Part shown: piece after piece, positions 15,706 to 49,440 of the stretch
How the letters are laid out: each line of letters begins with the position of its first letter
Position numbering within the stretch: the first letter of the stretch is position 1
Source: a phage
Reading direction: 5' to 3' (one strand)
DNA: 64,000 nucleotides
Sequence record: PZ534515.1
Made by a program: the position numbers and the translations under genes
Notes under the pieces: model-generated
What the model saw: only the letters and a program-made list of their open reading frames with translations
Told to the model about the DNA's origin: nothing
Database searches by the model: none

Positions 15706-15728
15706 TAGGGGCTTCAAAGCCCCATTTT
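15706..15728 (+). terminator. stem-loop / weak terminator
   Basis: ggggcttcaaagcccc hairpin followed by ATTTTG. Confidence 0.45.
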
Positions 15729-20822: not shown

Positions 20823-20852
20823 TTGACAAGGGGCTTCAAAGCCCCTTAGAAT
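20823..20852 (+). promoter_or_regulatory. putative promoter with hairpin in spacer (TTGACA ... TAGAAT)
   Basis: TTGACA, an 18-bp spacer containing the ggggcttcaaagcccc hairpin, then TAGAAT. Confidence 0.35.
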
Positions 20853-22021: not shown

Positions 22022-22047
22022 AAGGCTGCTTCGGCGGCCTTTTTTAT
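22022..22047 (+). terminator. rho-independent terminator
   Basis: GC-rich hairpin (ggctgc-ttcg-gcggcc) followed by TTTTTTATTT. Confidence 0.6.
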
Positions 22048-22106
22048 TTGTATTTTGTGCAGAGTGCTGTATAATTGTGGTCACGATAAACTAAACAGGA
22101 GAACCA

Positions 22107-24961: not shown

Positions 24962-25163
24962 AAAGACACGGAAACTTATCAGGTCAGCAGTGTTCATTGG
25001 ACGAAATGAGGTCATACCATTTACAGCAAATGATGTGATAGCTTACCGGAAGAACTTAGTATTCACTGACTGTTTACGTGGCTTCATCTCTGAACCATTG
25101 GAAGACTTTAAAAGTCGCTGTGGTAAAGGTATCATCATTCAAGAGGCAATTATTCATGGCTGA
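24936..25163 (+). CDS. hypothetical protein
   Basis: ATG with GAGAAGG upstream. Confidence 0.4.
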   Translation: MRVILARDKKTRKLIRSAVFIGRNEVIPFTANDVIAYRKNLVFTDCLRGFISEPLEDFKSRCGKGIIIQEAIIHG

Positions 25164-25356
25164 CTTCTGCAAAGACTGTGCTATCGAAATGTTCGGACGT
25201 GATACAGGTGACTTAAAAGGTCTTATCACTGAAGATGACTTTAAAGCTGGCTATGCAATGCCAGTAATCTGTGAAGGTTGTGGATGTATCTGGGTAGACC
25301 ACGAAGGACAACGTGTAAAACCTTCAGAAGATAAAGAATCTTGGGAGAGATGCTAA
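25156..25356 (+). CDS. small Cys-rich protein (C-x-x-C ... C-x-x-C)
   Basis: In-frame ATG with AAGAGG upstream; CKDC ... CEGCGC. Confidence 0.35.
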   Translation: MADFCKDCAIEMFGRDTGDLKGLITEDDFKAGYAMPVICEGCGCIWVDHEGQRVKPSEDKESWERC

Positions 25357-26142
25357 ATGGGTATTGTAAAAATCATCAATGGGGATATCTTCTCCGCATT
25401 TGATAAAGGTAAGTTTGATATCATTGGTCACGGTTGCAACTGTATGAACTTAATGGGTGCGGGTATCGCTGACAAGATTTCTAAACTTTACCCAAAAGCA
25501 TATGAGACCGATACAGAAGTTTATCTGTATACAGGTGGTATAGGCCACAAACCCTGTGAAAATTTACTAGGCAACTTCTCTGTAGCACGTTTAAAACAAG
25601 GCCGTATAGCTAACCTTTACACTCAGCTTCACACTGGTAAAGATGCCAGATACAGTGCTTTAGAGTCATCTCTGAAACAGCTTAACAGATACTGTGAAGT
25701 TAATCAGTTGAAGAAAGTTGGTTTACCTATGATTGGTGCAGGTATCGGTGGACTTGACCCTCAAGCCGTCACCGTTATCATTAATCAGGTGATGAAGAGT
25801 GTAGATGTCTATCTATATGTCTACGAAGGAGAGATGTACCACAAGTTACGCTCAGGTTGGAAGAACTACTGTGAACCAGAATACTTTGCAGGTGTAGTAG
25901 TGTTCACAGATAACACAGTTACCCTCTTCAGACGAAGAAAAGGTAAGGTACATCAAAGTAACCCTCCGGTTGAAAAGATGTCTCTAAGTAACGCTCTAGT
26001 TACCCACCTGTCGAAGAGCAATCACAGAATTGCAGTAACATTTGGCAGTGATGCAGATACATATATCTATGCAAGAAATGATGAGGATGTTGAGGAAATT
26101 TTCTCTTCACCGGAAGTTACCTTCTTAGACGCAAAGAACTAA
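25357..26142 (+). CDS. macrodomain protein (ADP-ribose binding/processing) with C-terminal extension
   Basis: IINGDIFS ... FDIIGHGCNCMNLMGAGIA matches the macrodomain N-terminal signature; later GLPMIGAGIGGLDP. About 100 aa of C-terminal extension has unknown fold. Confidence 0.65.
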   Translation: MGIVKIINGDIFSAFDKGKFDIIGHGCNCMNLMGAGIADKISKLYPKAYETDTEVYLYTGGIGHKPCENLLGNFSVARLKQGRIANLYTQLHTGKDARYSALESSLKQLNRYCEVNQLKKVGLPMIGAGIGGLDPQAVTVIINQVMKSVDVYLYVYEGEMYHKLRSGWKNYCEPEYFAGVVVFTDNTVTLFRRRKGKVHQSNPPVEKMSLSNALVTHLSKSNHRIAVTFGSDADTYIYARNDEDVEEIFSSPEVTFLDAKN

Positions 26143-26207
26143 GAAACTCTGTAGAATATTCACAATAGACTAAGCCTTTCTTATCTGGTAAATTTTCAGG
26201 TAAGGAG

Positions 26208-26408
26208 GGCTTTTTCATTTTAGAATTGTGCAGGTAGAGTTCTGTAGAGAAATCTGTAGAGAGAATTTTGAACTCCAAAGAGAAAATTTATTTTCAAACT
26301 GTGCAGGTAATCTCCAAAGAGCTTTTTCATTTTCAAAACGTGCAGAACCCACTCAGGTCGGGCAAGAAAAATCATTTTAGAATTGTGCAGGTAGGTGGGT
26401 GCAGGTGG
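26208..26408 (+). repeat. four direct repeats, consensus ttt-CATTTT-N2-AA-N2-GTGCAGGTA
   Basis: Copies at about 26208-26237, 26283-26311, 26320-26348 and 26367-26408 (the last with a duplicated GTGCAGGTgg tail), in a non-coding interval after the macrodomain gene. Confidence 0.6.
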
Positions 26409-26569
26409 GAATGTCGCCATTTCTCACAAGGCTACCACATCTGGAAATAAAAGTCAACAGAAAAATTTGTAGCGGATTGAAAAATAATTATTGATTGTAG
26501 TTCTGTTTTGTGGTAGTCGCGCGCACCCGTTTCATTACAATTCTTGCAAAAATATTTTTAAAATTCCTA

Positions 26570-26598
26570 TTGACTCTTTGAGTATGGTTATCTAATAT
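26570..26598 (+). promoter_or_regulatory. sigma70-like promoter (TTGACT-17 bp-TAATAT)
   Basis: Hexamers with 17 bp spacer, upstream of the first gene of the small-gene array. Confidence 0.5.
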
Positions 26599-26647
26599 TT
26601 GCATCAGACGGGCAAGCAAGCCCACTTCCTAAACTGGAGAATCCAAA

Positions 26648-26854
26648 ATGATGTACAGTCGCGAATTGATGGTTACAACCAACGTTAACACAAAGGCAAA
26701 ACGTTTTTATATGCAAGTGTGCGGCGCATGGCGTAGAATATCAGAAGCTGATTATTGCAACTATGTAGAAACGGCAATTAACTCTAATTGCTACCTAACA
26801 AAGAATACAAAGCGACATATAAAACAGACAGCGGTTTACTATTACGATATATAA
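26648..26854 (+). CDS. hypothetical small protein (array gene 1)
   Basis: ATG with GGAG upstream; followed by a type A module. Confidence 0.45.
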   Translation: MMYSRELMVTTNVNTKAKRFYMQVCGAWRRISEADYCNYVETAINSNCYLTKNTKRHIKQTAVYYYDI

Positions 26855-26942
26855 AAAGTACTTTACAAGGGGCTTAAAAGTTGATATCTTAAGCCCCAGA
26901 TAAAGAGCTTTACTAACTTACCTTAAACTAGGAGATTCTAAA

Positions 26943-27323
26943 ATGGCTTATCGTGCACCGAAATTCATCAATAAAGACAACTTCCGCAACGCACTGGAGA
27001 AGTCACTTGATGAAAAATTTAACGGTAAATTGATTATTGTTCACGCATTCAATTTTAAGTATGATATTAATGGGAATAAAATCAACCATTACACGGCAAC
27101 CATGATAGATGGTACACTATCAAGTGAAAAAGCCGTACTGAATGCACTTGCTGGACGCGGTAAAAACCTGATAAAATGTGATAAGCGACGTTATCAGGGT
27201 GGCGCATATGGTTATGATGATGCTGTTTACCATCTTGAAAACATGGGCTATTCAGTGGAAAAAGCTGGAGTGTCTCAAATAATCGGCAGTGACGGCTATG
27301 TGACAATTTTCAAAATTAACTAA
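26943..27323 (+). CDS. hypothetical protein (array gene 2)
   Basis: Conserved leader taaactaggagattctaaaATG. Confidence 0.5.
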   Translation: MAYRAPKFINKDNFRNALEKSLDEKFNGKLIIVHAFNFKYDINGNKINHYTATMIDGTLSSEKAVLNALAGRGKNLIKCDKRRYQGGAYGYDDAVYHLENMGYSVEKAGVSQIIGSDGYVTIFKIN

Positions 27324-27411
27324 TAAAGTACTTTACAGGGGGCTTATAGTTCGATAAAGTAAGCCCCAGATAAAGAGCTTTACCACTAAATCCTAAATTG
27401 GAGATTCAAAA

Positions 27412-27702
27412 ATGGCTATTATTAAAAACGTTGTAATTCCTGCAAAAACTCGTGATGACGCTCGCATCATGGCGAAAAAGTTAGGCGGGAAAGTGGTTGA
27501 CAACGGAAAACAAACTGCTGTAAGGTGGAACGTGAAGGCGGATAAACAAATGAATTTAAAAAATTCACCAATAAACTTTTTTACATGTGTAAACACTATC
27601 GGGAAAACGAATGTATACACTAAAAAGGCATATATCAGACGCATCGCCATGACGTCACCTATTCGCACAATGAGAAGTCATGCAAAGCTGAAAATTAAGT
27701 AA
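27412..27702 (+). CDS. hypothetical basic protein (array gene 3)
   Basis: Conserved leader; Lys/Arg-rich product. Confidence 0.5.
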   Translation: MAIIKNVVIPAKTRDDARIMAKKLGGKVVDNGKQTAVRWNVKADKQMNLKNSPINFFTCVNTIGKTNVYTKKAYIRRIAMTSPIRTMRSHAKLKIK

Positions 27703-27792
27703 TAGAGTACTTTACAGGGGGCTTAAAAGCTGATATCTTAAGCCCCAGATAAAGAGCTTTACCACTCAATCCTTAAACTAGGAGATTCAAAA

Positions 27793-28305
27793 ATGAAAAC
27801 TGTAGACGCTACCTTTGAAGTTGTAAAAGAAAAATTTTCCATCATTTACGAAGCTGTCAATTGCTACGAAGCAAGCCATAATCTTGATAATTGGAAGTTT
27901 ACAGATGACCATCAAGGCGGTGTGACTATTAAAAACCCCAACTGTCAGCGTAATGGATTTAAATATGCAATTCCTTTACATTACAGCCTTAAACAGCTTT
28001 CAATTGACTATGCAAAACAAGGCCGGGAAAATCCATCGAAAGAGGCTTACATCAGCTTACAGAAAGAACTAGAAAGAGATTTAGAGGCTTCAGAATATAA
28101 CATCGCCGCGAAAGTTGTAGATGCAAACGGTAGCACGGTTTTAGAGAGTTTTTATATTGGTTATGCTTTCGATTGGTGCTACAGTGACGGCGATGATTTA
28201 GATGACAGACTAAAAGAGGAAGTGAACAACGCAGACGCAGAATCTGAAGTATTAGAACGCTTGGAAGCATTAAAAGATTCAGTGATGAATATCTTTAAGA
28301 ACTAA
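27793..28305 (+). CDS. hypothetical acidic protein (array gene 4)
   Basis: Conserved leader. Acidic residues clearly outnumber basic ones by eye. Confidence 0.5.
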   Translation: MKTVDATFEVVKEKFSIIYEAVNCYEASHNLDNWKFTDDHQGGVTIKNPNCQRNGFKYAIPLHYSLKQLSIDYAKQGRENPSKEAYISLQKELERDLEASEYNIAAKVVDANGSTVLESFYIGYAFDWCYSDGDDLDDRLKEEVNNADAESEVLERLEALKDSVMNIFKN

Positions 28306-28397
28306 ATAGATTTCTTTACACGGGGCTAACAAGCTGGTAGGATAGCCCCAGATAAAGAGATTTATCAAATAAAGCCCTTAAACTAGGAGATTCAAAA

Positions 28398-28694
28398 ATG
28401 AAATTATCAAATCAAGTGCGTGAAAATCTAAGCAAATTACTCAATAAAATTGATTTTATCGAGACATCAAGAAATAGTCATGATGTTATGGAATGGTTAC
28501 ACGGCAAAATAAAAGGCCGTCGCGTAGTAATTTGCTTATGGAATAGTTGCAGGGAGTATAAAAAGCCTGTATTGCAAATTAATGTTTATGATGATACTTT
28601 TAAAAGTCCTGTTAAATCTGAAAGTGATTTATTAGAAGCTTATGAGATAACTGTAAATGGTAAAGTATCACGCAGAGAGGTAACACCATGCTAA
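28398..28694 (+). CDS. hypothetical protein (array gene 5)
   Basis: Conserved leader. Confidence 0.5.
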   Translation: MKLSNQVRENLSKLLNKIDFIETSRNSHDVMEWLHGKIKGRRVVICLWNSCREYKKPVLQINVYDDTFKSPVKSESDLLEAYEITVNGKVSRREVTPC

Positions 28695-29020
28695 TGATGG
28701 GCATCACTGCAATCATCGCCATTATAGCACTTTATAAGGCTTACAGCGCCTACAATCTGGCAAGTAAGGCAATCACGCAACAGGTCAATAATAGCCTTGT
28801 AATGAGCTTTCTGGAGCGTTTAAGTGATGAGCAAATAAAGCGGCTAGAAATGAGCTTCAGATTCAAAGCGAAAACCTATCAGATAAGTGATATCTTCAAA
28901 GATGATTTTCAGTTAGTCGATGATTATAATTCACTGATAAATGCTTTAAATATCAGTGACTTAAAAGACTACTACGCTGTAATTGTTCAAGAATTGAGCA
29001 AACGAAAAAATTTCTCTTGA
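28688..29020 (+). CDS. hypothetical membrane protein (array gene 6)
   Basis: ATG overlapping the upstream stop; N-terminal TM helix MLMMGITAIIAIIALY. Confidence 0.45.
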   Translation: MLMMGITAIIAIIALYKAYSAYNLASKAITQQVNNSLVMSFLERLSDEQIKRLEMSFRFKAKTYQISDIFKDDFQLVDDYNSLINALNISDLKDYYAVIVQELSKRKNFS

Positions 29021-29107
29021 TTTTGGTTTTTAAAACAAGTAAATTACTAATCAACGGGAGGGATGACCTCCCCACTAAGTAAAGTCCTTAAACTAGGAGA
29101 TTAGAAA

Positions 29108-29380
29108 ATGTATACTACTAACAACGGTCGTACTCTAAATGTAACTTTGCGCCACTATGTGAACGGTGTAATGCACTTCGAGGATTTACAAGCCGAACAA
29201 CATATCTTAGATTGGCAACTTGCAGGACTCCAAAAAACTGCTACAGGATACGGGAAAAAGATTCCAACCAGTTGGAAAGTATACTACGAAGGCCGTTTGC
29301 GCAGAATTTATCAAGATGTGCATAGCAATAGCGCAACAAGTTACATCATGGTAAAAGGCAAAAAGCTGCATTTAGTATAA
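29108..29380 (+). CDS. hypothetical protein (array gene 7)
   Basis: Type B leader. Confidence 0.5.
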   Translation: MYTTNNGRTLNVTLRHYVNGVMHFEDLQAEQHILDWQLAGLQKTATGYGKKIPTSWKVYYEGRLRRIYQDVHSNSATSYIMVKGKKLHLV

Positions 29381-29466
29381 AGTACTTTACAAGGGGCTTA
29401 TAGTTCGATAAAGTAAGCCCCAGATAAAGAGCTTTACCACTAAATCCTAAATTGGAGAACTTAAAA

Positions 29467-29871
29467 ATGGCTATTAATAATCGCGAGTTATCAATCTTAA
29501 AAGCACGTTTGACCGTTAACCGGATTAATGTTATTACGTCATCAGCACCGGACGAAACATTGCACAACATTATTGGGAAGATTCAAAGCGTTATCTTAGA
29601 CGTTGAAAACGTAAAAAACTCATTGGCTGACGTTGCAGCAGGTATCACGCTAGACGGTGCACAATATGAAATGACCGACATGTTAGGCAAATCTAAGGTA
29701 ATGAATAAAGAGCTTGATTTGAAAATGTTTCGATTTGCTGTTAAAGTGTGGCTATCTGTCGAGTATGACGCTAATTTTGCAATCGCTGACTTTTTCGCAA
29801 CATGGTTGCAACGTAACTTAACAAATCACGATTTTCGTAATATCTGTGATGCAATTTACGCAGAACTATAA
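29467..29871 (+). CDS. hypothetical protein (array gene 8)
   Basis: Type A leader places the ATG at 29467; the track start at 29452 is probably too far upstream. Confidence 0.45.
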   Translation: MAINNRELSILKARLTVNRINVITSSAPDETLHNIIGKIQSVILDVENVKNSLADVAAGITLDGAQYEMTDMLGKSKVMNKELDLKMFRFAVKVWLSVEYDANFAIADFFATWLQRNLTNHDFRNICDAIYAEL

Positions 29872-29880
29872 AAATTTTTG

Positions 29881-29909
29881 TTGACACTGGTTTTCAGATA
29901 GATTAAATT
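29881..29909 (+). promoter_or_regulatory. putative sigma70-like promoter (TTGACA-17 bp-TAAATT)
   Basis: Hexamers read from sequence inside the array. Confidence 0.35.
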
Positions 29910-29972
29910 ACACATCAACGGGGCTGGAATGACCTTCCCCACTAAATAAAGTCCTAAACTGGAGATTCAAAA

Positions 29973-30176
29973 ATGGCTATTATTAACGGTTTAACCATTG
30001 AAACTACACACATCAAAGATATTAAAGTTGGTGATGTAGTCCTTTCCCACGGCGTAGAGAAAACTGTTACTGCAAAGGATATCAAAGAGGATTCTTTCAT
30101 GGGTAGGACTCTCTTCGGTGATTCTTATTGCTTAGGTTATCTTGCAGTTTTAAAAGTTGTCAAAAATAACCGATAA
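29973..30176 (+). CDS. hypothetical protein (array gene 9)
   Basis: Type B leader. Confidence 0.5.
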   Translation: MAIINGLTIETTHIKDIKVGDVVLSHGVEKTVTAKDIKEDSFMGRTLFGDSYCLGYLAVLKVVKNNR

Positions 30177-30268
30177 AGTACTTTACAAGGGGCTTAAAAG
30201 TTGATATCTTAAGCCCCAGATAAAGAGCTTTACCACTAAATCAAGTCCTTAAACTAGGAGATTCAAAA

Positions 30269-30811
30269 ATGAAATGCTTTCACGGTACTACTCAAGAAAA
30301 TTTTATCAACCTGATTAATAACGGTGATAAGCCATCAGGTGCATGGAATTGTTCGGATATGGATGGGAATTTTTACGTTTATCCAGAAAATAAAATCTAT
30401 GGCGACGATGAGGAAGAGATAATCTCTGAAGGTATCCAGCAAGCTCTGGGCAATGCCGCTATCACCGCAGCTTTCCAGATGAAAACCCAAAATATTGTTA
30501 TCTTAGAACTTGATATTCCAGAAGATGAGTTAAACGATGATTATTCTTGTGATAATATGTCTGGCGTGGCAAGTTTTACAGAATATTTCGATTTAAACTG
30601 GATTAAAAAGGTTTACACCACTGAATTTAATGCTATGTTTTCACCATTTTGTCTGCCTTCACTGGATAACCCGAATTTAAGCTATATTGACGAGTCTCTG
30701 GAACTTCTCGCTAAAAGCGTTCAACAGTCCGACAGTATTCAAGTTTTTTGTGACATCATGGACACACTGACGGGAAACATCATAGAAAGAGATTTAAAGA
30801 GCTTTTTCTGA
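30269..30811 (+). CDS. hypothetical acidic protein (array gene 10)
   Basis: Type A leader; acidic patches. Confidence 0.5.
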   Translation: MKCFHGTTQENFINLINNGDKPSGAWNCSDMDGNFYVYPENKIYGDDEEEIISEGIQQALGNAAITAAFQMKTQNIVILELDIPEDELNDDYSCDNMSGVASFTEYFDLNWIKKVYTTEFNAMFSPFCLPSLDNPNLSYIDESLELLAKSVQQSDSIQVFCDIMDTLTGNIIERDLKSFF

Positions 30812-30844
30812 AAACCTATACAATCACCTTATAAACACTATTCA

Positions 30845-30866
30845 GCCCCTGTAAGGGGCTTTTAAG
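30845..30866 (+). terminator. rho-independent terminator
   Basis: agcccc-tgta-aggggct hairpin followed by TTT. Confidence 0.5.
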
Positions 30867-30877
30867 AGGCTTAAATC

Positions 30878-31111
30878 ATGCTTACAACTGTTTATCTCAT
30901 CCTTTCTATTTGTAACGGTCATTCATGTGATTTTAAAGGGCTTGAGGAGTTTACAGGAAGTAAAGAAAATGCCGTTCAGGTCTGTCAGATAGCAAGACAA
31001 GACTACCCCGCCAGTGATGACATTCAGTGTTATTTTAAGACAGAAGACAGCGACGGCGTTTATTTTGACAGCGTTGATGGTCAATATGAAATTATCATTG
31101 AAAAAGACTAG
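30878..31111 (+). CDS. hypothetical protein (array gene 11)
   Basis: AAGAGG upstream; the only array gene with its own non-modular leader. Confidence 0.45.
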   Translation: MLTTVYLILSICNGHSCDFKGLEEFTGSKENAVQVCQIARQDYPASDDIQCYFKTEDSDGVYFDSVDGQYEIIIEKD

Positions 31112-31199
31112 ACAAGCCTGATAAAAGTCTGTAAATTGTCAATCAACGGGAGGGATGACCTCCCAACTAAACAAAGTCCTTAAACTAGGAGATTCAAAA

Positions 31200-31541
31200 A
31201 TGGCTTATGTAACCGTAATTACCAATAAAGAAGATTCATCTTGGTCAACTCAAGTAAGTGACAAGATGTCACCTATGCAGTGCCTAAAATACTTTGAGCA
31301 ATGGAACAAAGGTGAGGAAACAAGCCCCTTTCAAGTAATGCAGGTTATTCATACAGACAACGAAGGGAATAAAACTGTTTTGAATAGTGAGTACTATGCA
31401 ACCAGATTCGAAACGAGAAGTAAAGCAATGAGGCTCTTACGTGAATCCGGTTACTCTCATATTGCCGCGCTAATCTGGGATGACCTCCTAAAAAGTCAGC
31501 GTATCAGCTATGTAAAACCTGAAAAAATATTTATCAGCTAA
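31200..31541 (+). CDS. hypothetical protein (array gene 12)
   Basis: Type B leader places the ATG at 31200. The track start at 31155 translates the conserved leader. Confidence 0.5.
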   Translation: MAYVTVITNKEDSSWSTQVSDKMSPMQCLKYFEQWNKGEETSPFQVMQVIHTDNEGNKTVLNSEYYATRFETRSKAMRLLRESGYSHIAALIWDDLLKSQRISYVKPEKIFIS

Positions 31542-31760
31542 TCAATAACTTACAAAAAACTTTTAAAAAAGTGTTGACAATGCCCCTTGACATTGGTAAC
31601 TTTGTTCGAGGGGGTTTATCTAAAAGGATTCACTTAAAAGATTCTTTATAGATAAACTTAAAAAATTGCTTGCAATCAGCTATCAAAACAAGTAAATTAC
31701 TAATCAACGGGAGGGATAACCTCCCCACTAAGTAAAGTCCTTAAACTAGGAGATTCAAAA

Positions 31761-32291
31761 ATGAACAAATTTCAAGCTATCAACTACATTCGCTCAATCC
31801 ATGTAATGTCAAAGCCTGTTAAAGACACCTATGAATTTCGTTGCAATGGTGTACACTTTGCAACCATCACTAAATCAGAAAACGGGACTTATTACATTCA
31901 TCGTCGTAATGTTGCAACCGTTGTAGTCTCTCACTTTATGCAAGCCGTTGCGGAACTCCTCCCGATGTTTTTAGGGCTTTACTTGGATGAGTGTAAGAAT
32001 ATCCGTAACCACGTTAAAAGCCTTTTAAACGGTTATAAAATGGCTTATGAACGTTCTATTCATAATTTGAACAAGTTCTATAAAGCCCCTGAAAACACCG
32101 TATCAATGGCATACGCTGTAAAGGGTGAGGCGGTGAGTCTCTTCGAAGTGGAAGAAATCGAGCTTTATGACCATCGCCCCAATGGTTACGCTAAAACTCT
32201 CGGTGAAGGTTTAACGTTTAACATCAAGAACTTAGAAAAAACTTTAAGAGATATTGAAAAAGATATTGACGAGACAATCAAAAATCTGTAA
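31761..32291 (+). CDS. hypothetical protein (array gene 13)
   Basis: Type B leader; preceded by a 220-bp spacer containing two TTGACA boxes. Confidence 0.5.
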   Translation: MNKFQAINYIRSIHVMSKPVKDTYEFRCNGVHFATITKSENGTYYIHRRNVATVVVSHFMQAVAELLPMFLGLYLDECKNIRNHVKSLLNGYKMAYERSIHNLNKFYKAPENTVSMAYAVKGEAVSLFEVEEIELYDHRPNGYAKTLGEGLTFNIKNLEKTLRDIEKDIDETIKNL

Positions 32292-32356
32292 ATTATCAAT
32301 CAACGGGAGGGATAACCTCCCCACTAAGTAAAGTCCTTAAACTAGGAGTTATCAAG

Positions 32357-32620
32357 ATGGAAAACGTAGAATTAACCACACTTTTACAAATTGCAACCGA
32401 TAAAGAAAACGTAGCATTAATTCACCGCATCGAAAGTGATTTGTTCAATGGTGAAATCATCAAAGAGTCTTACGAAGTTGTCGGATTCAAAGATGGTAAA
32501 ACGTTTGGATTCTTTGACCTCGACAAAGGCAACGCTGTTACAAATTACGATGTTTTATCTTGTGAGATTCTTACAAAATACAACGAAAAAAGGCTTGCAA
32601 CATACACCAACATGCAGTAA
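32357..32620 (+). CDS. hypothetical protein (array gene 14)
   Basis: Variant type B leader (aggagttatcaagATG). Confidence 0.45.
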   Translation: MENVELTTLLQIATDKENVALIHRIESDLFNGEIIKESYEVVGFKDGKTFGFFDLDKGNAVTNYDVLSCEILTKYNEKRLATYTNMQ

Positions 32621-32686
32621 ATTACTAATCAACGGGAGGTAATGACCTCCCCACTAAACAAAGTCCTTAAACTAGGAGATTCAAAA

Positions 32687-32935
32687 ATGGCAACTATCCG
32701 CGCAACTGTTAACGAATTTGGCTTCTACTCTCTGGATGTTAAATTTGACCTTGTAGGCACTGACAACGCCTTTGAAATGGTGAAAGGTCTTATCAGTCAG
32801 ACCATCAAAGACTATAATCCTTCTGATGAGTTCTGGAAAGAAACAAAACAGGAAGTTCTTAAAGATGGTTACACTTTTCACTATTGGGGAGAAAAAATCG
32901 TCTCCCTGTACTACAACAAACAAGATTATAACTAA
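32687..32935 (+). CDS. hypothetical protein (array gene 15)
   Basis: Type B leader places the ATG at 32687. The track start at 32642 translates the leader. Confidence 0.5.
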   Translation: MATIRATVNEFGFYSLDVKFDLVGTDNAFEMVKGLISQTIKDYNPSDEFWKETKQEVLKDGYTFHYWGEKIVSLYYNKQDYN

Positions 32936-32945
32936 TCGACGCAGC

Positions 32946-33000
32946 GGGGCTAAATAGCCCCAGATACCTTTACAGCCCCTTTCCAATAGGGGCTTTTTTA
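32946..33000 (+). terminator. tandem hairpins / rho-independent terminator closing the array
   Basis: ggggctaaatagcccc, then agcccctttccaataggggct followed by TTTTTT. Confidence 0.6.
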
Positions 33001-34530
33001 CGTCTTATGAAATGCCTATACAATCCTTTCCCTTTCCTTTCCAGAATCTTACTAGACCTTAAAAAGCAATAACTCTATAGCTTACTCTATAGCCTTTTAT
33101 CAAATCAACTTAAATATAAGCCCATAACCCGAAAGGGAAGGGCAACCATTTAAACGCTCTATAAAGCCCTATAACAGCCTTATCAACCCAACTTAAGGGA
33201 TTGCATTACCTCACCCTTAAAAGCCCTTTATAAAGCTTTCTAGAGCCTTAAAAGAATCTTATAAGGTTGTAAGCTTTATCATCTCGTTAGTATCTTATGA
33301 ACTACTAGAAAGGGCTTGTTAGTGTTTTAAAAGTATGTTATAGGGGCTATAAAGTTGCTTAAAAGTAGCTTAAAAGTTACGTAAATGCTAGCCCCCTTAA
33401 CATTTTCTTAACAATTTCTTAACAAACCCTACATAGTTATGCTTTTAAGGCACTTGTTAGCAACTTGTTAGCCCCTTGTTAAATCTCTGTTAAAACCATG
33501 TAAAAGCCTTGTAAGAGTCTTTGACATAGCCTTTAAAGCCCCTGTAAAGCCCTATAAAGAGCTTTCTACATAGTTGGGGTGTAATTACTAGGAAGAGACT
33601 TAAAAGAGCTTACAAGGAGCTATAGAGAGCTTTTAAGAGGGCTATTTAGAGAATCACTAAGAAAGAGAGGGAACGATAAGAAAAGAGATAGTGACCATGT
33701 TAATAGCTTGTTAAAAAGATTAAACACTTGTTAGGAACTTGTTAATTATCTTAACAAAATAACTCTTTAAAATTAACTTGTTAGCTCTTGTTAGTCATCT
33801 GTTAAGCATCTGTAAAGACTATTCAGCACTTGTTAGAAAACTGTTAAGCCCTTGTTAGTTCTGTTAAGAAACTGTTAAGACCTCTGAAGAGATGTTAAGA
33901 AGATGTAGCAACTGTTAAGAGATTGTTAATGATATTTTAAAATTCTGCAAAGGGGATGTTACAGGGATGTTAAGGGCTACCAAGCAGATATACATCTTCT
34001 ACAGATATTTTTGAGTTCCTTCAAAGACCCTAAAAAATGACTTGATAGTCCTATTTTATAAAAATTTTAAAATTCTGAATAATTACCTAGACAGTCTTTT
34101 AAAAATACAGGCATAAACAGGCTTATAAGATACCTTGTTAGTACCGTGTTAGACCTTGTGAGATAAGGTCTGTAAAGATATTCCTGTTAAGTTTGTTAAA
34201 ACAGTCTATATAGAGGCTTAGTAATACCTAGTGAACACCTATAGAGGGTAACATAGCTGACATAGAGATTAAGAGGTGTATAGGGGCTTCTAAGAGTGTG
34301 TAGATGTATGGTTAAGGTGATTGTATAGGTTGTTAAGAAGGCTTGTTAGAAGAGTGTTTAGAAGGGCTATACAGAGGGGCTATTAAGACCACTAGATAGT
34401 TACTAAGATACTATATAGTACTATATAACTATATATAGAGAGTAAGCTTAAGGAGGTTGTTAAGAAGGATAGATATTTTATTCACATATGATGGTGACCC
34501 AGAGGTTGGGACAACCGATAAAATTTTATA
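33000..34530. repeat. ORF-free zone with dense short degenerate repeats (YTGTTAR family and cttaaaag/tataaag family)
   Basis: No ORF of 60 aa or more on either strand across about 1.5 kb. More than 30 copies of cttgttag / ctgttaag / atgttaag; between 33700 and 33960 they recur about every 11 bp. Bounded by convergent terminators. Confidence 0.65.
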
Positions 34531-34565
34531 AAAATTAAAAAGCCCCCAATTAAGGAGGCTCTTAA
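34530..34565 (-). terminator. rho-independent terminator (minus strand)
   Basis: Reverse complement reads gagcctcc-ttaatt-gggggct hairpin followed by TTTTTAATTTTT, downstream of the last minus-strand gene. Confidence 0.5.
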
Positions 34566-34571
34566 GATATT

Positions 34572-44615: not shown

Positions 44616-44692
44616 CTCTGTTTAGCTCAGCTTGGTAGAGCGTTCCGTTTGGGGCGGTAAGGCCGGAGGTTCAAGTCCTCCAACAGAGACCA
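44616..44692 (+). tRNA. tRNA-Pro (anticodon TGG), CCA encoded
   Basis: Hand-folded: acceptor ctctgtt/aacagag, D-arm gctcagcttggtagagc, anticodon loop ttTGGgg, T-arm ggagg-ttcaagt-cctcc. Confidence 0.7.
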
Positions 44693-44699
44693 AATTAAT

Positions 44700-44777
44700 G
44701 TTCCAGTAGACAAAATGGTAAAGTCACCACTCTTTCAAAGTGGATATTTGAGGGTTCAAATCCCTTCTGGAACGCCA
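44700..44777 (+). tRNA. tRNA-Glu (anticodon TTC), CCA encoded
   Basis: Acceptor gttccag/ctggaac, anticodon stem ccact/agtgg with loop ctTTCaa, T-loop ttcaaat. Confidence 0.7.
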
Positions 44778-44868
44778 GTTTTGACAGAAGACCAATTACA
44801 GCAAACTTAATCTTATTCATCTGAAGATAAATCGGACAAAGAAGAGATTTGGTCTGGTCATTAAGAAT

Positions 44869-44945
44869 TGCGGGTATAGAGAAAGGGCGTCTCACATGTC
44901 TCATTAGCATGGTATCGGCAGGTTCGACTCCTGCACCCGCCTCCA
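44869..44945 (+). tRNA. tRNA with anticodon CAT (Met/fMet or Ile-lysidine); 1:72 position unpaired
   Basis: T-arm gcagg-ttcgact-cctgc; acceptor tgcgggt/acccgcc with first-pair mismatch; anticodon loop ctCATta. Atypical features, so lower confidence. Confidence 0.45.
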
Positions 44946-45022
44946 ATTTTGCAGAAGACCGTATTCAGCAACAAACTACTTTTTGCGGATAAAAGAAAAA
45001 ACACGGTCTGGCAATGTATTAA

Positions 45023-45099
45023 GGTTAGGAAGCACATAAGGTATGTGCGGTCGCCTGTTAAGCGAATGGCACAGGGTTCGAATCCCTGACTAACCGCCA
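45023..45099 (+). tRNA. tRNA-Asn (anticodon GTT), CCA encoded
   Basis: D-arm gcac-ataaggtat-gtgc, anticodon loop ctGTTaa, T-arm caggg-ttcgaat-ccctg. Confidence 0.65.
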
Positions 45100-45170
45100 A
45101 ATTTAGGGGAGAAGCGATTGCTCACCGATTTGTAAGGTGCAAGTCCTTAGCCTGAATAGAATAATAAAAT

Positions 45171-45258
45171 GTGTCGTTATCCCGTAGATGGTAGCGGTGG
45201 GGACTGTAAATCCCTTGTCATTGAGACTCGGTAGGTTCGACTCCTACACGGCACACCA
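45171..45258 (+). tRNA. tRNA-Tyr (anticodon GTA), long variable arm, CCA encoded
   Basis: About 85 nt. Acceptor gtgtcgt/acggcac (one GU), anticodon loop ctGTAaa, T-arm gtagg-ttcgact-cctac. Confidence 0.65.
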
Positions 45259-45264
45259 AATAAA

Positions 45265-45342
45265 GGTTATGTAGTTTAATCTGGTTAAAATACTCCCCTG
45301 TCACGGGAGATGATGAGGGTTCAAATCCCTTCGTAACCGCCA
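45265..45342 (+). tRNA. tRNA-Asp (anticodon GTC), CCA encoded
   Basis: Acceptor ggttatg/cgtaacc, anticodon stem ctccc/gggag with loop ctGTCac, T-loop ttcaaat. Confidence 0.7.
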
Positions 45343-45799
45343 AATTATAATAAGTATTTCAAGATGATGTTTTGAGAGGGCTATTTATCCCCTCCCTTAA
45401 AGAGTTCTTACGAGTATTCTTTAAAGGAGCAGAAGACCAAATACAGCAAGTTACTTAAAATTTCAAGCCAATTTAATTTTGAAAAATTTAAAACTTGGTC
45501 TGGCTCAACAAATTTACAGAAGACCGTTTACAGCAAAACTTAAACAATCTATTTCTCCGGTAAAGAAAAGGCGAAGGTTCGATTCCTTCACTCGGCAGAT
45601 GTCGAGTTGGTGTAATGGTAGCACTTAAGATGATAAACAACGGTCTGGTAATTATCTTTGCAGTAGCTTATGTGGCTAATTATGTCGTCCCATGAGTGCC
45701 GATGAATTTCCTTAGCATGATTCTAGATTAGCTTAATAGGAAATGACTCTACAGACCCTTTAGCAAGGTCTGCGTAGGTTACTGCAAAGGTAATTTAAT

Positions 45800-45875
45800 G
45801 GAAGTGTAGCAGAATGGTGATGCGGCAGACTTTTAATCTGACAGGCGATGGGTTCGAATCCCTCCACTTCTACCA
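45800..45875 (+). tRNA. tRNA-Lys (anticodon TTT), CCA encoded
   Basis: Acceptor ggaagtg/cacttct, D-arm gca-gaatggtga-tgc, anticodon loop ctTTTaa. Weak T-stem (ggg/ccc) shared with the paralogous tRNA-Lys(CTT). Confidence 0.6.
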
Positions 45876-45879
45876 ATAT

Positions 45880-45956
45880 GGTTCAGTCGCAGATAAGGTA
45901 ATGCAGGGGTCTCATAAGCCCTATGAATGTGGGTTCGATTCCCATCTGAACCTCCA
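45880..45956 (+). tRNA. tRNA with anticodon CAT (Met-type), CCA encoded
   Basis: Acceptor ggttcag/ctgaacc, anticodon stem ggggt/gccct with loop ctCATaa, T-arm gtggg-ttcgatt-cccat. Confidence 0.65.
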
Positions 45957-45957
45957 A

Positions 45958-46033
45958 GCTGGTATAGTTAAGAAGGTTATAACACTCCCCTGATAAGGGA
46001 ATATCGGTGGTTCGATTCCACCTACCAGTACCA
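45958..46033 (+). tRNA. tRNA-Ile (anticodon GAT), CCA encoded
   Basis: D-arm gtta-agaaggtta-taac, anticodon loop ctGATaa, T-arm ggtgg-ttcgatt-ccacc. Confidence 0.65.
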
Positions 46034-46048
46034 ATTTCAATAAAGTTG

Positions 46049-46077
46049 TTGACATTAACATGTGACCACTTTATAGT
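46049..46077 (+). promoter_or_regulatory. internal sigma70-like promoter in the tRNA bank (TTGACA-17 bp-TATAGT)
   Basis: Hexamers and spacing read directly. Confidence 0.5.
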
Positions 46078-46278
46078 AACCTTAGTTTTCGTTGCGTAGC
46101 GTCTATTTTGCAAATTTAAAATAAATGCAAACGACAATGTTTTTCTGGCAGTAGCTTGATAGGCTAAACACCAGTGAGGTCTTCCAATCCCTCATCAAAG
46201 AATTTGGCGTACTCGCCCACGGTATGATTAATAAGGTGGGCATCTTTAAGGGCTTTCTAAGAGAGTCTTTAAAGATTA

Positions 46279-46355
46279 ATGCACCCTTAGTTCAATTGGA
46301 TAGAGCAACGGTCTTCTAAATCGTTAGTTACAGGTTCGAATCCTGTAGGGTGTGC
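46279..46355 (+). tRNA. tRNA-Arg (anticodon TCT), CCA encoded
   Basis: D-arm gttc-aattggata-gagc, anticodon stem acggt/atcgt with loop ctTCTaa, T-arm acagg-ttcgaat-cctgt. Confidence 0.7.
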
Positions 46356-46499
46356 CAAATAGTTAGCAGATTGCTTAGACGACCTTATCGGGTCTCCGTG
46401 TAAGGAGGTGGTCTGTATCTCATGTTTTCCAGAACATGTAAATAATCTGAGAAGGGGCTTTACAGTGTTGCGAAAATACGGTAAGCTTCGAATTATAGT

Positions 46500-46582
46500 G
46501 TGGGACGATGTTAAGACTCTAAGGCATGAGCAACGGCCTCCAAAACCGTTTCAAAGGGGTTCAACTCCTCCGTCCCATGCCA
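46500..46582 (+). tRNA. tRNA-like gene, probable tRNA-Trp (anticodon CCA) with an enlarged D region
   Basis: Acceptor gtgggac/gtcccat, anticodon arm aacgg(c)-ctCCAaa-(a)ccgtt, T-loop ttcaact. About 7 extra nt between acceptor and anticodon arm; needs a tRNA scanner. Confidence 0.4.
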
Positions 46583-46595
46583 AAGTCTTATTAGG

Positions 46596-46683
46596 GGTAG
46601 GTAGCGGCTAATGGCAGCCAAACAGTCTTGAAAACTGTTGCCACTGTAGAGATACGGTGAGGGTTCGACTCCTTTACTTACCG
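46596..46683 (+). tRNA. tRNA-Ser (anticodon TGA), long variable arm, CCA not encoded
   Basis: 88 nt. Acceptor ggtaggt/acttacc, anticodon loop ctTGAaa, T-arm gaggg-ttcgact-ccttt. Confidence 0.6.
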
Positions 46684-46837
46684 CCTAATAAGATTTAAAG
46701 CCAAGCTTCATTCGGATGTTGCTTTGGTATCCCTCGTGTATTGTCGTACACACTGATAAAGCACCTAGTAGGTGTCACGGAGAAGAGATAATATCAAGCT
46801 CTCCAAAGGTTCTAGTCACCGGATTAAACAAGACTAT

Positions 46838-46862
46838 GCAAAGACCAATTTAGGTCTTTTTA
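46838..46862 (+). terminator. rho-independent terminator inside the tRNA bank
   Basis: aagacc-aattt-aggtctt hairpin followed by TTTT. Confidence 0.5.
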
Positions 46863-46940
46863 GAGGGCTTCTAAGGTTATTACAGCTTGTTGTGGAACCT
46901 TGTTGCTTAGGTTCTTAGAAGTTCTCTAAAAAGATTTAAT

Positions 46941-47017
46941 GCACCTATAGCCCAACTGGTAGAGGCAGCAGACTTAGAATCTGCTCAGTGTGAGTTCGAA
47001 TCTCTCTAGGTGTACCA
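46941..47017 (+). tRNA. tRNA with anticodon TAG (Leu), short variable arm, CCA encoded
   Basis: Acceptor gcaccta/taggtgt, anticodon stem gcaga/tctgc with loop ctTAGaa, T-loop ttcgaat. Variable loop is only about 5 nt. Confidence 0.55.
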
Positions 47018-47024
47018 AATTAAT

Positions 47025-47100
47025 GCAGGTGTAGCAAAATGGTTATGCGGCTGACTCTTAATCAGTAAGACGATGGGTTCAATTCCCTCCACCTGTACCA
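47025..47100 (+). tRNA. tRNA-Lys (anticodon CTT), CCA encoded
   Basis: Close paralog of tRNA-Lys(TTT): acceptor gcaggtg/cacctgt, anticodon loop ctCTTaa. Confidence 0.6.
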
Positions 47101-47106
47101 AACATT

Positions 47107-47182
47107 GGGGTCATAGTTTATATGGTTAAAATTCGAGTTTTGCAAACTTGGGAACTGAGTTCAATTCTCAGTGACTCCACCA
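47107..47182 (+). tRNA. tRNA-Ala (anticodon TGC), CCA encoded
   Basis: Acceptor ggggtca/tgactcc, anticodon loop ttTGCaa, T-arm ctgag-ttcaatt-ctcag. Confidence 0.65.
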
Positions 47183-47188
47183 ATTAGT

Positions 47189-47263
47189 GCATCCATAGTT
47201 TAAACGGGAAAATTACAGTCTTCCAAACTGAGGTTGAGGGTTCGATTCCCTCTGGATGCTCCA
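47189..47263 (+). tRNA. tRNA-Gly (anticodon TCC), CCA encoded
   Basis: Perfect acceptor gcatcca/tggatgc, anticodon loop ctTCCaa, T-arm gaggg-ttcgatt-ccctc. Confidence 0.7.
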
Positions 47264-47269
47264 AACAAT

Positions 47270-47346
47270 GCTGCTTTCGTATAATTGGCTATTACACATC
47301 CCTTGTAAGGATGGAGATGCGGGTTCAAGTCCTGTGAGCAGCACCA
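47270..47346 (+). tRNA. tRNA-Thr (anticodon TGT), CCA encoded
   Basis: Acceptor gctgctt/gagcagc, anticodon stem catcc/ggatg with loop ctTGTaa, T-loop ttcaagt. Confidence 0.7.
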
Positions 47347-47441
47347 ATTCAGAGGTCAAGTGAAAGACCGCTGGTGTCAACTGAAGACCGTAACAAATTC
47401 CACGGAGTTGAGTTAGCGGCACAACTTCAGACCTCTTTCAT

Positions 47442-47516
47442 ACTCGCTTAGTTTATATGGTAAAACATCACCCTTACAAGATGAAGAAAAAGGTTCAAGT
47501 CCTTTAGTGAGTACCA
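47442..47516 (+). tRNA. tRNA-Val (anticodon TAC), CCA encoded
   Basis: Acceptor actcgct/agtgagt, anticodon loop ctTACaa, T-arm aaagg-ttcaagt-ccttt. Confidence 0.6.
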
Positions 47517-47517
47517 T

Positions 47518-47595
47518 GTTCCAGTATCCCAATTGGCAGAGGATGCAAGCTCAAACCTTGTACTAGTGACGGTTCGAATCCGTCTTGGAACACCA
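47518..47595 (+). tRNA. tRNA with anticodon CAA (Leu), short variable arm, CCA encoded
   Basis: Acceptor gttccag/ttggaac, anticodon stem gcaag/cttgt with loop ctCAAac, T-arm gacgg-ttcgaat-ccgtc. Confidence 0.55.
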
Positions 47596-47600
47596 ATTTT

Positions 47601-47676
47601 GCAGGATTAGTTCAAATGGATAGAGCAACAGTCTACGAAGCTGTTAATAGGGGTTCGAATCCCTTATCCTGCACCA
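47601..47676 (+). tRNA. tRNA-Arg (anticodon ACG), CCA encoded
   Basis: Perfect acceptor gcaggat/atcctgc, D-arm gttc-aaatggata-gagc, anticodon loop ctACGaa. Confidence 0.7.
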
Positions 47677-47695
47677 ATTTAAAGAGGCTATTTAG

Positions 47696-48253
47696 ATGAG
47701 ATATTTGAAGTATGCTTCATGGATTTTCCTAGCTTTGTTAGACCCATTGGCAGCAACCTTAGCAGTTATCTTAGCACCTTTTGTAGTTCCATTCTATAGT
47801 GAGAAGAAAGGACATCTACCTTTTGGATTCAGATGGATGGAGACATATGACAACCCCATTGATGGTGATGAAGGTCACATTAAACGATGGGCTAAGATTA
47901 GAAAGATTGGTAAGCTTGGTGTCTATTTGCAGAGAGTTGGATGGCTCTGGAGAAACAAAGCTTATAACTTCTCTTACCATGTGTTAGGAAGAGATATAAA
48001 AGATGTTACTAAGTGGAAAGGTAATATCAACGTAAGCTCTGACCCTGAAGATAATCAGACAGGTTATCTCCTAATGTGGAACAGTAATGCTTGGGGATTA
48101 TTCGCTTTTATCCCATCAATTAAAGTCTTTGGTAAACAATTCTACTGGAGAATTTATGTTGGGTGGAAACTAAAAAGTGTTGTCCCAGAAGAAAGAGCAT
48201 TCTCAAGGGAAAGAGTTATGTTGGCATTCTTTATTCATCCACTGAGAAAGTAA
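47696..48253 (+). CDS. hypothetical membrane protein embedded in the tRNA bank
   Basis: ATG with AAGAGG 8 nt upstream. N-terminal TM helix (WIFLALLDPLAATLAVILAPFVV), Trp-rich. Flanked by tRNAs on both sides. Confidence 0.5.
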   Translation: MRYLKYASWIFLALLDPLAATLAVILAPFVVPFYSEKKGHLPFGFRWMETYDNPIDGDEGHIKRWAKIRKIGKLGVYLQRVGWLWRNKAYNFSYHVLGRDIKDVTKWKGNINVSSDPEDNQTGYLLMWNSNAWGLFAFIPSIKVFGKQFYWRIYVGWKLKSVVPEERAFSRERVMLAFFIHPLRK

Positions 48254-48261
48254 AGATTTAA

Positions 48262-48337
48262 AGGGGATTAGTTTACAAGGTTAAAACCTCGGTCTTTGAA
48301 ATCGAAGAAGTTGGTTCAATTCCAACATCCCCCGCCA
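48262..48337 (+). tRNA. tRNA-Gln (anticodon TTG), CCA encoded
   Basis: Anticodon stem tcggt/atcga with loop ctTTGaa, T-arm gttgg-ttcaatt-ccaac. Confidence 0.6.
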
Positions 48338-48339
48338 AT

Positions 48340-48418
48340 GCTCCATTACTCCAATTGGCAGAGAGGCCAGACTTAAAATCTGTGTTATGTATCGGTTCGA
48401 ATCCGATATGGAGTACCA
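48340..48418 (+). tRNA. tRNA with anticodon TAA (Leu), variable region about 8 nt, CCA encoded
   Basis: Acceptor gctccat/atggagt, anticodon loop ctTAAaa, perfect T-arm atcgg-ttcgaat-ccgat. Confidence 0.55.
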
Positions 48419-48423
48419 AATTT

Positions 48424-48499: not shown

Positions 48500-48522
48500 C
48501 TTCTAAGGATTCTTACGAGAGT

Positions 48523-48598: not shown

Positions 48599-48603
48599 TC
48601 ACC

Positions 48604-48679: not shown

Positions 48680-48695
48680 GGACTACCAATTTCAA

Positions 48696-49439: not shown

Positions 49440-49440
49440 T

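Follow-up and report, generated by a model that had tools for sequence, protein, structure and literature searches.

A run of small genes separated by near-identical intergenic modules raises the question of whether such modules serve only to express the genes or also to exchange them. We addressed it for a phage locus in sequence record PZ534515.1, of which a stretch of 64,000 nucleotides (the window) was analysed. The locus, an array of 15 open reading frames (ORFs) of 67-180 aa named w1-w15, occupies positions 26648-32935 of the + strand. About 15 small genes had been noticed there in a preliminary description, made from the sequence alone, which compared their surroundings with the promoter-early-stem-loop (PeSL) cassettes of T4-type hyperplastic regions. 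Both the anatomy of the modules and the module-bounded behaviour of the genes match the definition of PeSLs, and we therefore class the array with them. We consider it probable (roughly 75%) that PeSL-type cassettes make up the region, which would be a hyperplastic array of early genes in a Felix O1-like myovirus.

The 6.9-kb array region was matched by 256 phage records, which covered between 3% and 100% of it. Those whose taxonomy was inspected were Ounavirinae, with ~88-92% identity for Felixounavirus and ~77% for Mooglevirus and Suspvirus; the top match was Salmonella phage BPS15Q2 (90.5%). The phage of the window is a Felixounavirus (Felix O1-like myovirus). A scan of the array region for intrinsic terminators returned two only, which bracket the array (Table 1), and both correspond to terminators, t13 and t23, given for Felix O1 in its genome paper (Whichard et al. 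2010, PMC3185647).

Twelve of the ORFs are preceded by a module, six of type A and six of type B, at the places first indicated, and w1 follows a thirteenth, divergent unit. The idea that every gene has a module of its own does not extend to w6, which overlaps w5 (the two behave as one two-gene cassette), or to w11, which is preceded by a terminator-like hairpin. A 23-nt translation leader, TTAAACTAGGAGATTCAAAAATG, occurs six times exactly and eight times with at most three mismatches, always within 26923-32689 and on the + strand, where shuffled sequences lead one to expect 0.00 copies. It had been thought common to all twelve modules and is not identical in all of them: four carry CTAAAYTGGAG, shorter by two bases (0.22 expected), and the leader at 32337 diverges past GGAG. 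In IMG/VR both module cores were found almost only on contigs of 50-94 kb, mostly of 81-94 kb (the size of Felix O1); the exceptions were three single leader matches on contigs of 15.7, 20.4 and 42.3 kb.

The anatomy of the modules was examined in 72 copies of type A and 86 of type B, collected from the window and 18 relatives (19 genomes). Type A modules have the order stop codon, 5-9 nt, TTTACA, 17 nt, TAnnnT. The stop codon keeps this distance to the -35 element in 70 of the 72 copies, and the spacer is 17 nt long in 70 copies and 18 nt in two. Ten different -10 hexamers were found (TAAAGT, TATCTT, TACCTT, TATGAT, TAAGAT, TAGGAT and others), whose T1, A2 and T6 are invariant (72/72). The GGGGCTT..AAGCCCC stem opens one base past the -35 element and ends just past the -10 element, so that it encloses both spacer and -10. 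What had been described as a loop that differs between conserved arms is the predicted -10 element, whose variation is exactly that which a sigma-70 -10 tolerates; the stems are indeed kept, but the loop is not free to vary.

In type B modules the -35 element (TTGACA, TTGCAA, TTGATT, TTGACG or TAGACA) is separated by 17 nt from TAAATT, which is replaced by TAAAGT in Mooglevirus and Suspvirus. Exactly 10 nt lie between the -10 element and the hairpin (86/86 copies). The -35 element and the spacer form the 3' end of the upstream gene, whose stop codon is the TAA that opens the -10 element in 26 copies and lies within the -35 element in 28 (TGA in TTGATT, TAG in TAGACA). Over both types the two hexamers are 17 (18) nt apart in all 158 copies, and the region is richer in promoter-like sites than expected (44 against 28.1 +/- 4.7). 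We infer that every module carries a predicted promoter of the host sigma-70 type, an element absent from the preliminary description.

The array was compared with 19 further relatives by means of gene-order strings, blastn chains and three-way alignments. Such a comparison had been proposed in the preliminary description, and it revealed no fixed syntenic set of genes; instead, gene content or order differed in nearly every genome, through module-bounded gain, loss, duplication and replacement. Felix O1 lacks w2, w3, w9-w11 and w14; LNA1 lacks w3-w4; LF110P4, w1, w3-w9 and w12-w13; Meda, w14; MBP4696116, w13-w15; and DR094, w2-w9. KhF3 is without w12-w13 and has one extra gene, and IME338 is without w3 and w5 and has two. 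In the blastn chains, adjacent high-scoring pairs overlap by 24-107 nt at the junctions, where one shared module is traversed by both parental flanks. Six distinct deletions (w2-3, w3-4, w3-9, w9-11, w12-13 and w14) show, in three-way alignments, a left-to-right switch between the parents inside a single module. In two more events CAACGGG(G) is the short shared sequence at which a type B module joins the terminal hairpin, and the breakpoint partner of several relatives sits in the array-end segment 32946-33000. The genes had been supposed to be accessory, which agrees with their variable content; since DR094, which lacks w2-w9, is a viable isolate, they are dispensable at least in part.

The modules exchange sequence as well. 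Each orthologous position is occupied by 3-12 hairpin alleles (9-16 genomes), and the same alleles, distinguished by several substitutions, recur at other positions; alleles that recur across positions and differ at orthologous ones require exchange between modules. Within genomes, type B alleles are identical more often than under permutation (25 against 16.7 +/- 3.4, a value reached in 42 of 2000 permutations). Unequal exchange is shown by the Ounavirinae contig L031 of IMG/VR (reverse complement, 7001-7870), in which a module+w3 cassette is tandemly duplicated (430 bp, 99.5% identity).

Up to a type B hairpin, phage BPS17W1 (L011 7053-7140) matches RPN213 with 99% identity; it then continues with a leader of Mooglevirus/Suspvirus style, AACAATCCTAAACTGGAGAATCT, and a right flank of 81% identity, a junction which suggests an inter-genus crossover at a module. 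Transfer of the x10 cassette between genera (IME338 versus KMM4) was considered and dropped as too weak: its identity of 87%, against 69-81% for the other shared genes (alignments of at least 170 nt), extends over only 140 nt.

On folding, the module hairpins reached -12 to -25 kcal/mol, with z mostly between -2 and -4; for the comparison with PeSLs the range was taken as -8 to -25 kcal/mol. Type A modules are predicted to form, on read-through RNA, an interrupted hairpin of ~20 bp (-22 to -25 kcal/mol, z down to -4.05), composed of lower stems of 5 and 6 bp (CTTTA/TAAAG and UAAAGU/GCUUUA), a 3x3 internal loop and a 9-bp upper stem. The hairpin itself measures 28-30 nt, with a variable distance between the arms, and is flanked by a 14-nt direct repeat, ATAAAG(TA/AG)CTTTAC, which is itself the lower-stem palindrome. 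Among 55 distinct type A sequences pairing was kept in 97.7% of cells, against at most 57% with a slid partner. Compensatory changes are few (G-C to U-A in five sequences, U.G versus A-U at the top of the stem, and T-A to A-T in the w5-linked arms, where GGGGCTT/AAGCCCC became GGGGCTA/TAGCCCC), and U.G is frequent, being present in 51 of the 55 sequences at one pair. All 36 type B alleles fold, with stems of 4-8 bp and -3.6 to -14.5 kcal/mol, and their inner pairs (depths 4-7) switch among A-U, G-C, C-G and G.U. The commonest of them, GGGGAGGG/CCTTCCCC, contains a G.U pair and gives -13.7 for the + strand RNA versus -10.3 for the complement; such pairs make the structure specific to RNA of the + strand. 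The selection on RNA structure that had been argued for from the conserved arms is thus moderately indicated, by few compensatory changes and by strand-specific G.U pairs.

None of the 12 module hairpins is followed by the U-tract of an intrinsic terminator; the next bases are AGATAAAG or ACTAA. Their annotation in KhF3 as minus-strand terminators was rejected, given this lack of a U-tract and the absence of minus-strand genes from the array. A mini-hairpin that takes in part of the Shine-Dalgarno (SD) sequence can form in the leaders in two versions, CCU-UAAACU-AGG and CC-UAAAYU-GG (~93 versus 102 leaders), with no mixed form, which is weak evidence of structure because the two sites are only 6 nt apart. 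An Rfam scan of 25000-34500 (E<=1) gave two sub-threshold chance matches, none within a module.

In the model that we propose, each ~90-bp module would give the upstream ORF the context of its stop codon and would further contribute a promoter recognised by the host sigma-70 RNA polymerase, a G+C-rich stem-loop and a shared translation leader whose GGAG stands 8 nt ahead of the ATG. Transcription would start ~7 nt past the -10 element, i.e. at CAGATAAAG in type A and 2-4 nt before the hairpin in type B. The latter geometry would place the type B hairpin at the 5' end of the mRNA, a position in which stem-loops shield E. coli mRNAs from 5'-end-dependent decay. Because a type A transcript is predicted to begin at the 3' foot of the module's hairpin, only RNAs begun upstream would form the complete type A structure, and on such read-through transcripts it might attenuate, process or 3'-stabilise. 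Since near-identical modules flank unrelated ORFs, they constitute portable homology; recombination between two of them could delete, duplicate, insert or swap whole ORFs with their expression signals intact, and could keep the gene set fluid among the Ounavirinae. Among the array ORFs in the part of the Felix O1 timing table examined, reverse transcription PCR placed 16, 20, 21 and 22 at 5 min after infection, and 14, 17, 19 and 23 at 25 min (PMC3185647); the same paper calls the promoters and temporal control of this phage not understood.

Several results weigh against this explanation. Three events at module edges are out of register. In the 3.2-kb deletion of w2-w9 in DR094, microhomology was limited to TAA(A), and a tandem pair of type A modules remained (either side of it this Salmonella phage is 99.9-100% identical to Salmonella phage DaR-2019b; L014 2433-2590, L004 2151-2235 and 5441-5544). 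The w5 deletion of IME338 is also out of register, and at the junction of the L031 duplication the leader ATG is joined straight to the CTTTACA of a module. In the test for concerted evolution, type A alleles showed no excess of within-genome identity (24 versus 23.0), and covariation comprised few independent events, with two of five whole-structure measures for type A not above shuffles. Selection against indels that break ORFs would by itself favour indel ends in intergenic modules. Finally, a literature search on Felixounavirus transcription starts or RNA-seq, termination and processing found nothing, so that the functions given to promoters and hairpins are sequence-based.

The last but one of these points can be extended into an alternative, in which the modules are conserved expression signals that do not promote rearrangement, and indels are seen in them since events breaking ORFs or signals have been lost. 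The intergenic space of the array is almost all module, so location alone cannot discriminate, and the three out-of-register events fit this view as well; we nevertheless consider it unlikely in view of the six in-register crossovers, each of which left one hybrid module with a left-to-right parental switch, the multi-substitution alleles that are shared across positions and differ at orthologous ones, and the CAACGGG(G) junction common to two further events. Still less credible, and in our opinion very improbable, is that the hairpin units are selfish miniature mobile elements spreading between genes, like repetitive extragenic palindromes (REP) or miniature inverted-repeat transposable elements (MITE). 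The many near-identical copies and the 14-nt repeat around the type A hairpin recall such elements, but that repeat is the lower-stem palindrome, and all copies have the same orientation, and the same register with respect to the stop codon, the promoter hexamers and the ATG. The units are, moreover, confined to one array in 64 kb and, in IMG/VR, to contigs of Felix O1 size, and no copies in opposite orientation or away from genes were seen in related genomes.

Two other alternatives concern the hairpins. They might be operators, at which a dimeric DNA-binding protein of phage or host shuts the early promoters, the RNA hairpins being incidental. The nearly invariant type A arms bracket the -10 element, the hairpin at 20830 fills a promoter spacer, and a CCCC..GGGG stem at 31583-31615 encloses a -10 element, all of which would suit a repressor. 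Type B stems, however, preserve pairing and not sequence (4 to 8 bp), and G.U pairs are meaningless in the recognition of double-stranded DNA, which makes this reading less likely; with the variable distance between the type A arms, and with no candidate repressor identified, we regard it as improbable. Alternatively, the type A hairpin, instead of terminating or attenuating transcription, could be where polycistronic early RNA undergoes RNase III-type processing and 3' stabilisation. This possibility overlaps with the PeSL-type explanation, as it concerns only the action of the hairpin, and it accords with the stability and internal loop of the read-through fold, the missing U-tract, the absence of internal terminators from w1-w10 and the U.G pairs that tie the structure to the + strand. 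Against it, the AU-rich lower stem is in part imposed by the palindrome TAAAG..CTTTA that also flanks the -35 element, and PeSL stem-loops of RB49/phi1 acted as terminators when tested (PMC2839356). On balance, processing by RNase III appears possible, with the odds against it.

The PeSL-type explanation may be carried further, and we do so only speculatively. The array could be a recombinase-free, integron-like cassette platform, whose modules act both as expression signals and as programmed break or template-switch points, and whose cassettes excise and re-insert, moving host-takeover or counter-defence genes of conditional use (e.g. w10-w11) among Felixounavirus, Mooglevirus and Suspvirus. 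With such a platform, the crossovers in register, the recurrence of CAACGGGG at junctions and the scars of two modules in tandem would all be accounted for.

PeSLs are defined by a sigma-70-like early promoter combined with a stem-loop, the latter in one of five possible places with respect to that promoter (Arbiol et al. 2010, PMC2839356). They run from the upstream stop codon to the SD sequence and ATG, lie between ORFans and mediate modular shuffling (PMC2839356; Comeau et al. 2014, PMC4122927), and are known in the T4-like phages RB49/phi1, T4/PST and KVP40/nt-1 (PMC2839356, PMC4122927). A literature search on PeSL and phage returned T4-like, cyanophage and review papers only. The modules studied here share with PeSLs the G/C-tract stem-loop between the -35 and -10 elements, overlapping the -10 or downstream of it, the extent of the unit and its clustering between small ORFans of a hyperplastic region, and crossovers of indels and replacements between relatives that fall inside the motifs. 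They differ in lineage (Ounavirinae, not T4-likes), in having just two sharply defined architectures with one shared leader, in the stop codons built into promoter hexamers, and in the type B hairpin, which lies past the predicted start and would be a 5' mRNA hairpin, not a pre-initiation one. Terminator activity and mini-circles were shown for the PeSLs of RB49/phi1, whereas our modules are known from sequence alone. The 57-bp and 39-bp "direct repeats" of Felix O1 (between genes 15/16 and 19/20, and 18/19 and 20/21) are these type A and type B modules; PMC3185647 lists them as repeats, and not as promoters, hairpins or recombination sites.

Parallels outside the PeSLs can also be drawn. A 5'-terminal stabilising stem-loop was reportedly found in the E. 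coli ompA 5' untranslated region by Emory, Bouvet and Belasco in 1992. Type B modules likewise predict a stable hairpin 2-4 nt from the mRNA 5' end, before an unstructured spacer and the SD sequence, but have no sequence relationship to ompA, and their start is placed by promoter geometry only. The RNase III sites of T7 early RNA, whose shape is said to have been established by Dunn and Studier, are similarly ~20-bp intergenic hairpins with an internal loop, situated among small early genes that the host polymerase transcribes. The T7 transcripts come from left-end promoters, whereas each module of the array has its own predicted promoter.

The array proteins are mutually unrelated, as had been judged by eye: all-vs-all BLASTP gave E>0.7 throughout, and the 15 proteins belong to 15 separate PHROGs. 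A clustering that merged w7, w9 and w13 into one family was discarded as a single-linkage artefact, since BLASTP shows no similarity among them. The PHROGs search yielded function-unknown families only, and in Pfam there was no match for any of the 15. Markedly acidic proteins, of which two had been announced, number three (w10, w11 and w4, with isoelectric points (pI) of 4.05, 4.11 and 4.62). Phage Bas63 has the same array (gp98-gp111). Proteins w3, w8 and w9 open alike, with ATGGCTATTA(T/A)TAA (MAII/MAIN) at 27412-27426, 29467-29480 and 29973-29987, and are otherwise unrelated; module homology extends over the first 4-5 codons of genes (repeat families D7 and D13).

Folds were predicted with a view to DNA mimics and anti-defence proteins, as the preliminary description had recommended. 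For w4 the AlphaFold2 model (predicted local distance difference test, pLDDT, 82) had no consistent fold match, and no assignment was made. The most acidic protein, w10, looks in its model like an ADP-ribosyltransferase (ART) rather than a DNA mimic. The core of an ART fold is a beta-sandwich, and its catalytic triad is either H-Y-E or R-S-E. In w10, Y36/Y38 and E80 are invariant and H5 is at least 90% conserved, and these residues could form an H-Y-E triad; at the sequence level, a w10 profile run against the PDB and Pfam scans of each member at lax E-values gave no ART match. Bas63 gp107, with which the protein shares 95% identity, is described in a preprint as more important on E. coli S17-1 and is likened there to the NAD-binding domain of RNA 2'-phosphotransferase (PMC11482910). 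The terminator-like hairpin downstream of w10, together with w11, accompanies w10 in every examined genome that carries it, and the pair could be an enzyme with its partner or inhibitor. Just upstream of the array, at 25357-26142, lies the gene of a 261-aa Macro-domain protein (PF01661, E 8e-8), labelled "phosphatase" or O-acetyl-ADP-ribose deacetylase in relatives; a candidate eraser of ADP-ribose possibly neighbours a candidate writer.

Further features of the array and its surroundings are listed in Table 1. The GGGGCTT/AAGCCCC arms recur twice outside the array, as had been pointed out, in a short hairpin, GGGGCTTCAAAGCCCC. The spacer between w12 and the next module contains TTGACA-17-TAACTT, with the -10 element inside the CCCC..GGGG stem mentioned above, and then a 17-bp AU-rich hairpin. 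It is nearly invariant in 12 relatives, with conservation above that of the genes, and no covariation was seen in it; it could be a small-RNA promoter or a regulatory site. True terminators (32946-33000, 30844-30863 and 2295-2320) have arms in the order AGCCCC..GGGGCT and a T-run, the reverse of the type A order GGGGCT..AGCCCC. The array end, where a short hairpin of type A appearance and AGATA are followed by CTTTACA and then a terminator, looks like a type A module in permuted order.

The motif (T)TTTCATTTTAGAATTGTGCAG occurs four times (repeat family D12; 26206-26390 and 22035-22062), with two copies right after terminator hairpins, and falls in the gap from the left terminator to the first module. 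The array is followed by ~1.57 kb without genes (33000-34570), where rightward and leftward transcription units meet. This segment, also gene-free in relatives, is dense in short repeats with a period of 10-12 bp, plus one of 22 bp, and might serve as an origin, for packaging or as an array of protein-binding sites. The + strand also carries, at 44616-49613, 26 clustered tRNA genes, as is typical of Felix O1-like phages.

Table 1. Features of the array and related elements in the window (positions are those of the whole stretch)
Feature	Position	Strand	Description
Terminator	26172-26212	+	Intrinsic terminator (terminator scan; Felix O1 "t13" in PMC3185647); ends the upstream unit; left array boundary
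Module 0 (divergent)	26570-26647	+	TTGACT 26570-75, 17 nt, TAATAT 26593-98; hairpin GGGC..GCCC 26610-26623; leader CTAAACTGGAG
w1	26648-26854	+	68 aa; phrog_5293, function unknown
Type A module	26852-26945	+	w1 stop codon; TTTACA-17-TATCTT; hairpin 26869-26897; leader; w2 ATG
w2	26943-27323	+	126 aa; phrog_4495, function unknown
Type A module	27321-27414	+	TTTACA-17-TAAAGT; hairpin 27339-27367, dG -25.1 kcal/mol, z -4.05
w3	27412-27702	+	96 aa; very basic (pI 11.0); phrog_5089
Type A module	27700-27795	+	Hairpin 27718-27746
w4	27793-28305	+	170 aa; acidic; phrog_4190
Type A module	28303-28400	+	Variant arms GGGGCTA/TAGCCCC; hairpin 28322-28349; -10 TAGGAT
w5 + w6	28398-29020	+	98 aa and 110 aa; 7-nt overlap, no module between
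Type B module	29017-29110	+	TTGATT (holds w6 TGA stop), 17 nt, TAAATT 29040-45, 10 nt; hairpin 29056-29073; leader
w7	29108-29380	+	90 aa; phrog_3436
Type A module	29378-29469	+	Hairpin 29393-29421; w7 TAA stop within module
w8	29467-29871	+	134 aa; phrog_4327
Type B module	29881-29975	+	TTGACA-17-TAAATT; variant hairpin GGGGCTGG..CCTTCCCC 29920-29940
w9	29973-30176	+	67 aa; phrog_3623
Type A module	30174-30271	+	Hairpin 30189-30217
w10	30269-30811	+	180 aa; pI 4.05; predicted ART-like fold; ortholog of Bas63 gp107
Terminator-like hairpin	30844-30863	+	AGCCCC-TGTAA-GGGGCT then TTT; between w10 and w11; below T-run threshold of the terminator scan
w11	30878-31111	+	77 aa; acidic; own ribosome-binding site
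Type B module	31109-31202	+	-35 TAGACA holds w11 TAG stop; -10 31132-37; hairpin 31148-31164
w12	31200-31541	+	113 aa; phrog_4318
Spacer	31542-31669	+	Non-coding, w12 to next module, 128 nt
Type B module	31670-31763	+	TTGCAA-17-TAAATT; hairpin 31709-31726
w13	31761-32291	+	176 aa; phrog_4725
Type B module	32266-32359	+	-35 TTGACG within w13 coding sequence; w13 TAA is first 3 nt of TAAATT; hairpin 32305-32322
w14	32357-32620	+	87 aa; phrog_7022
Type B module	32595-32689	+	w14 TAA is first 3 nt of -10; hairpin 32634-32652
w15	32687-32935	+	82 aa; phrog_4559; start codon picked from leader and annotated orthologs
Array end	32946-33000	+	Hairpin GGGGCTAAATAGCCCC then AGATA (32946-32961); intrinsic terminator with T-run 32974-32994 (Felix O1 "t23" in PMC3185647)
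Outlier	15708-15723	+	Hairpin GGGGCTTCAAAGCCCC then ATTTTG
Outlier	20823-20852	+	TTGACA; hairpin GGGGCTTCAAAGCCCC (20830-20845) inside 18-nt spacer; TAGAAT

It has been proposed that PeSLs generally drive the turnover of accessory genes in large virulent phages. That the same design, together with clear signs of crossovers, is present in the Felix O1 group, which is unrelated, suggests that the solution is either convergent or widespread. Salmonella typing and biocontrol make wide use of Felix O1-like phages. The location of their early promoters was left open by the Felix O1 genome paper, and 13 candidates are now mapped for this phage group. For engineering, the modules mark sites at which genes might be removed or inserted without disturbing expression. 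The dispensable early orphans, including the putative ART-like protein w10, whose ortholog is conditionally required in Bas63, can be considered as candidates for a role in host takeover or counter-defence.

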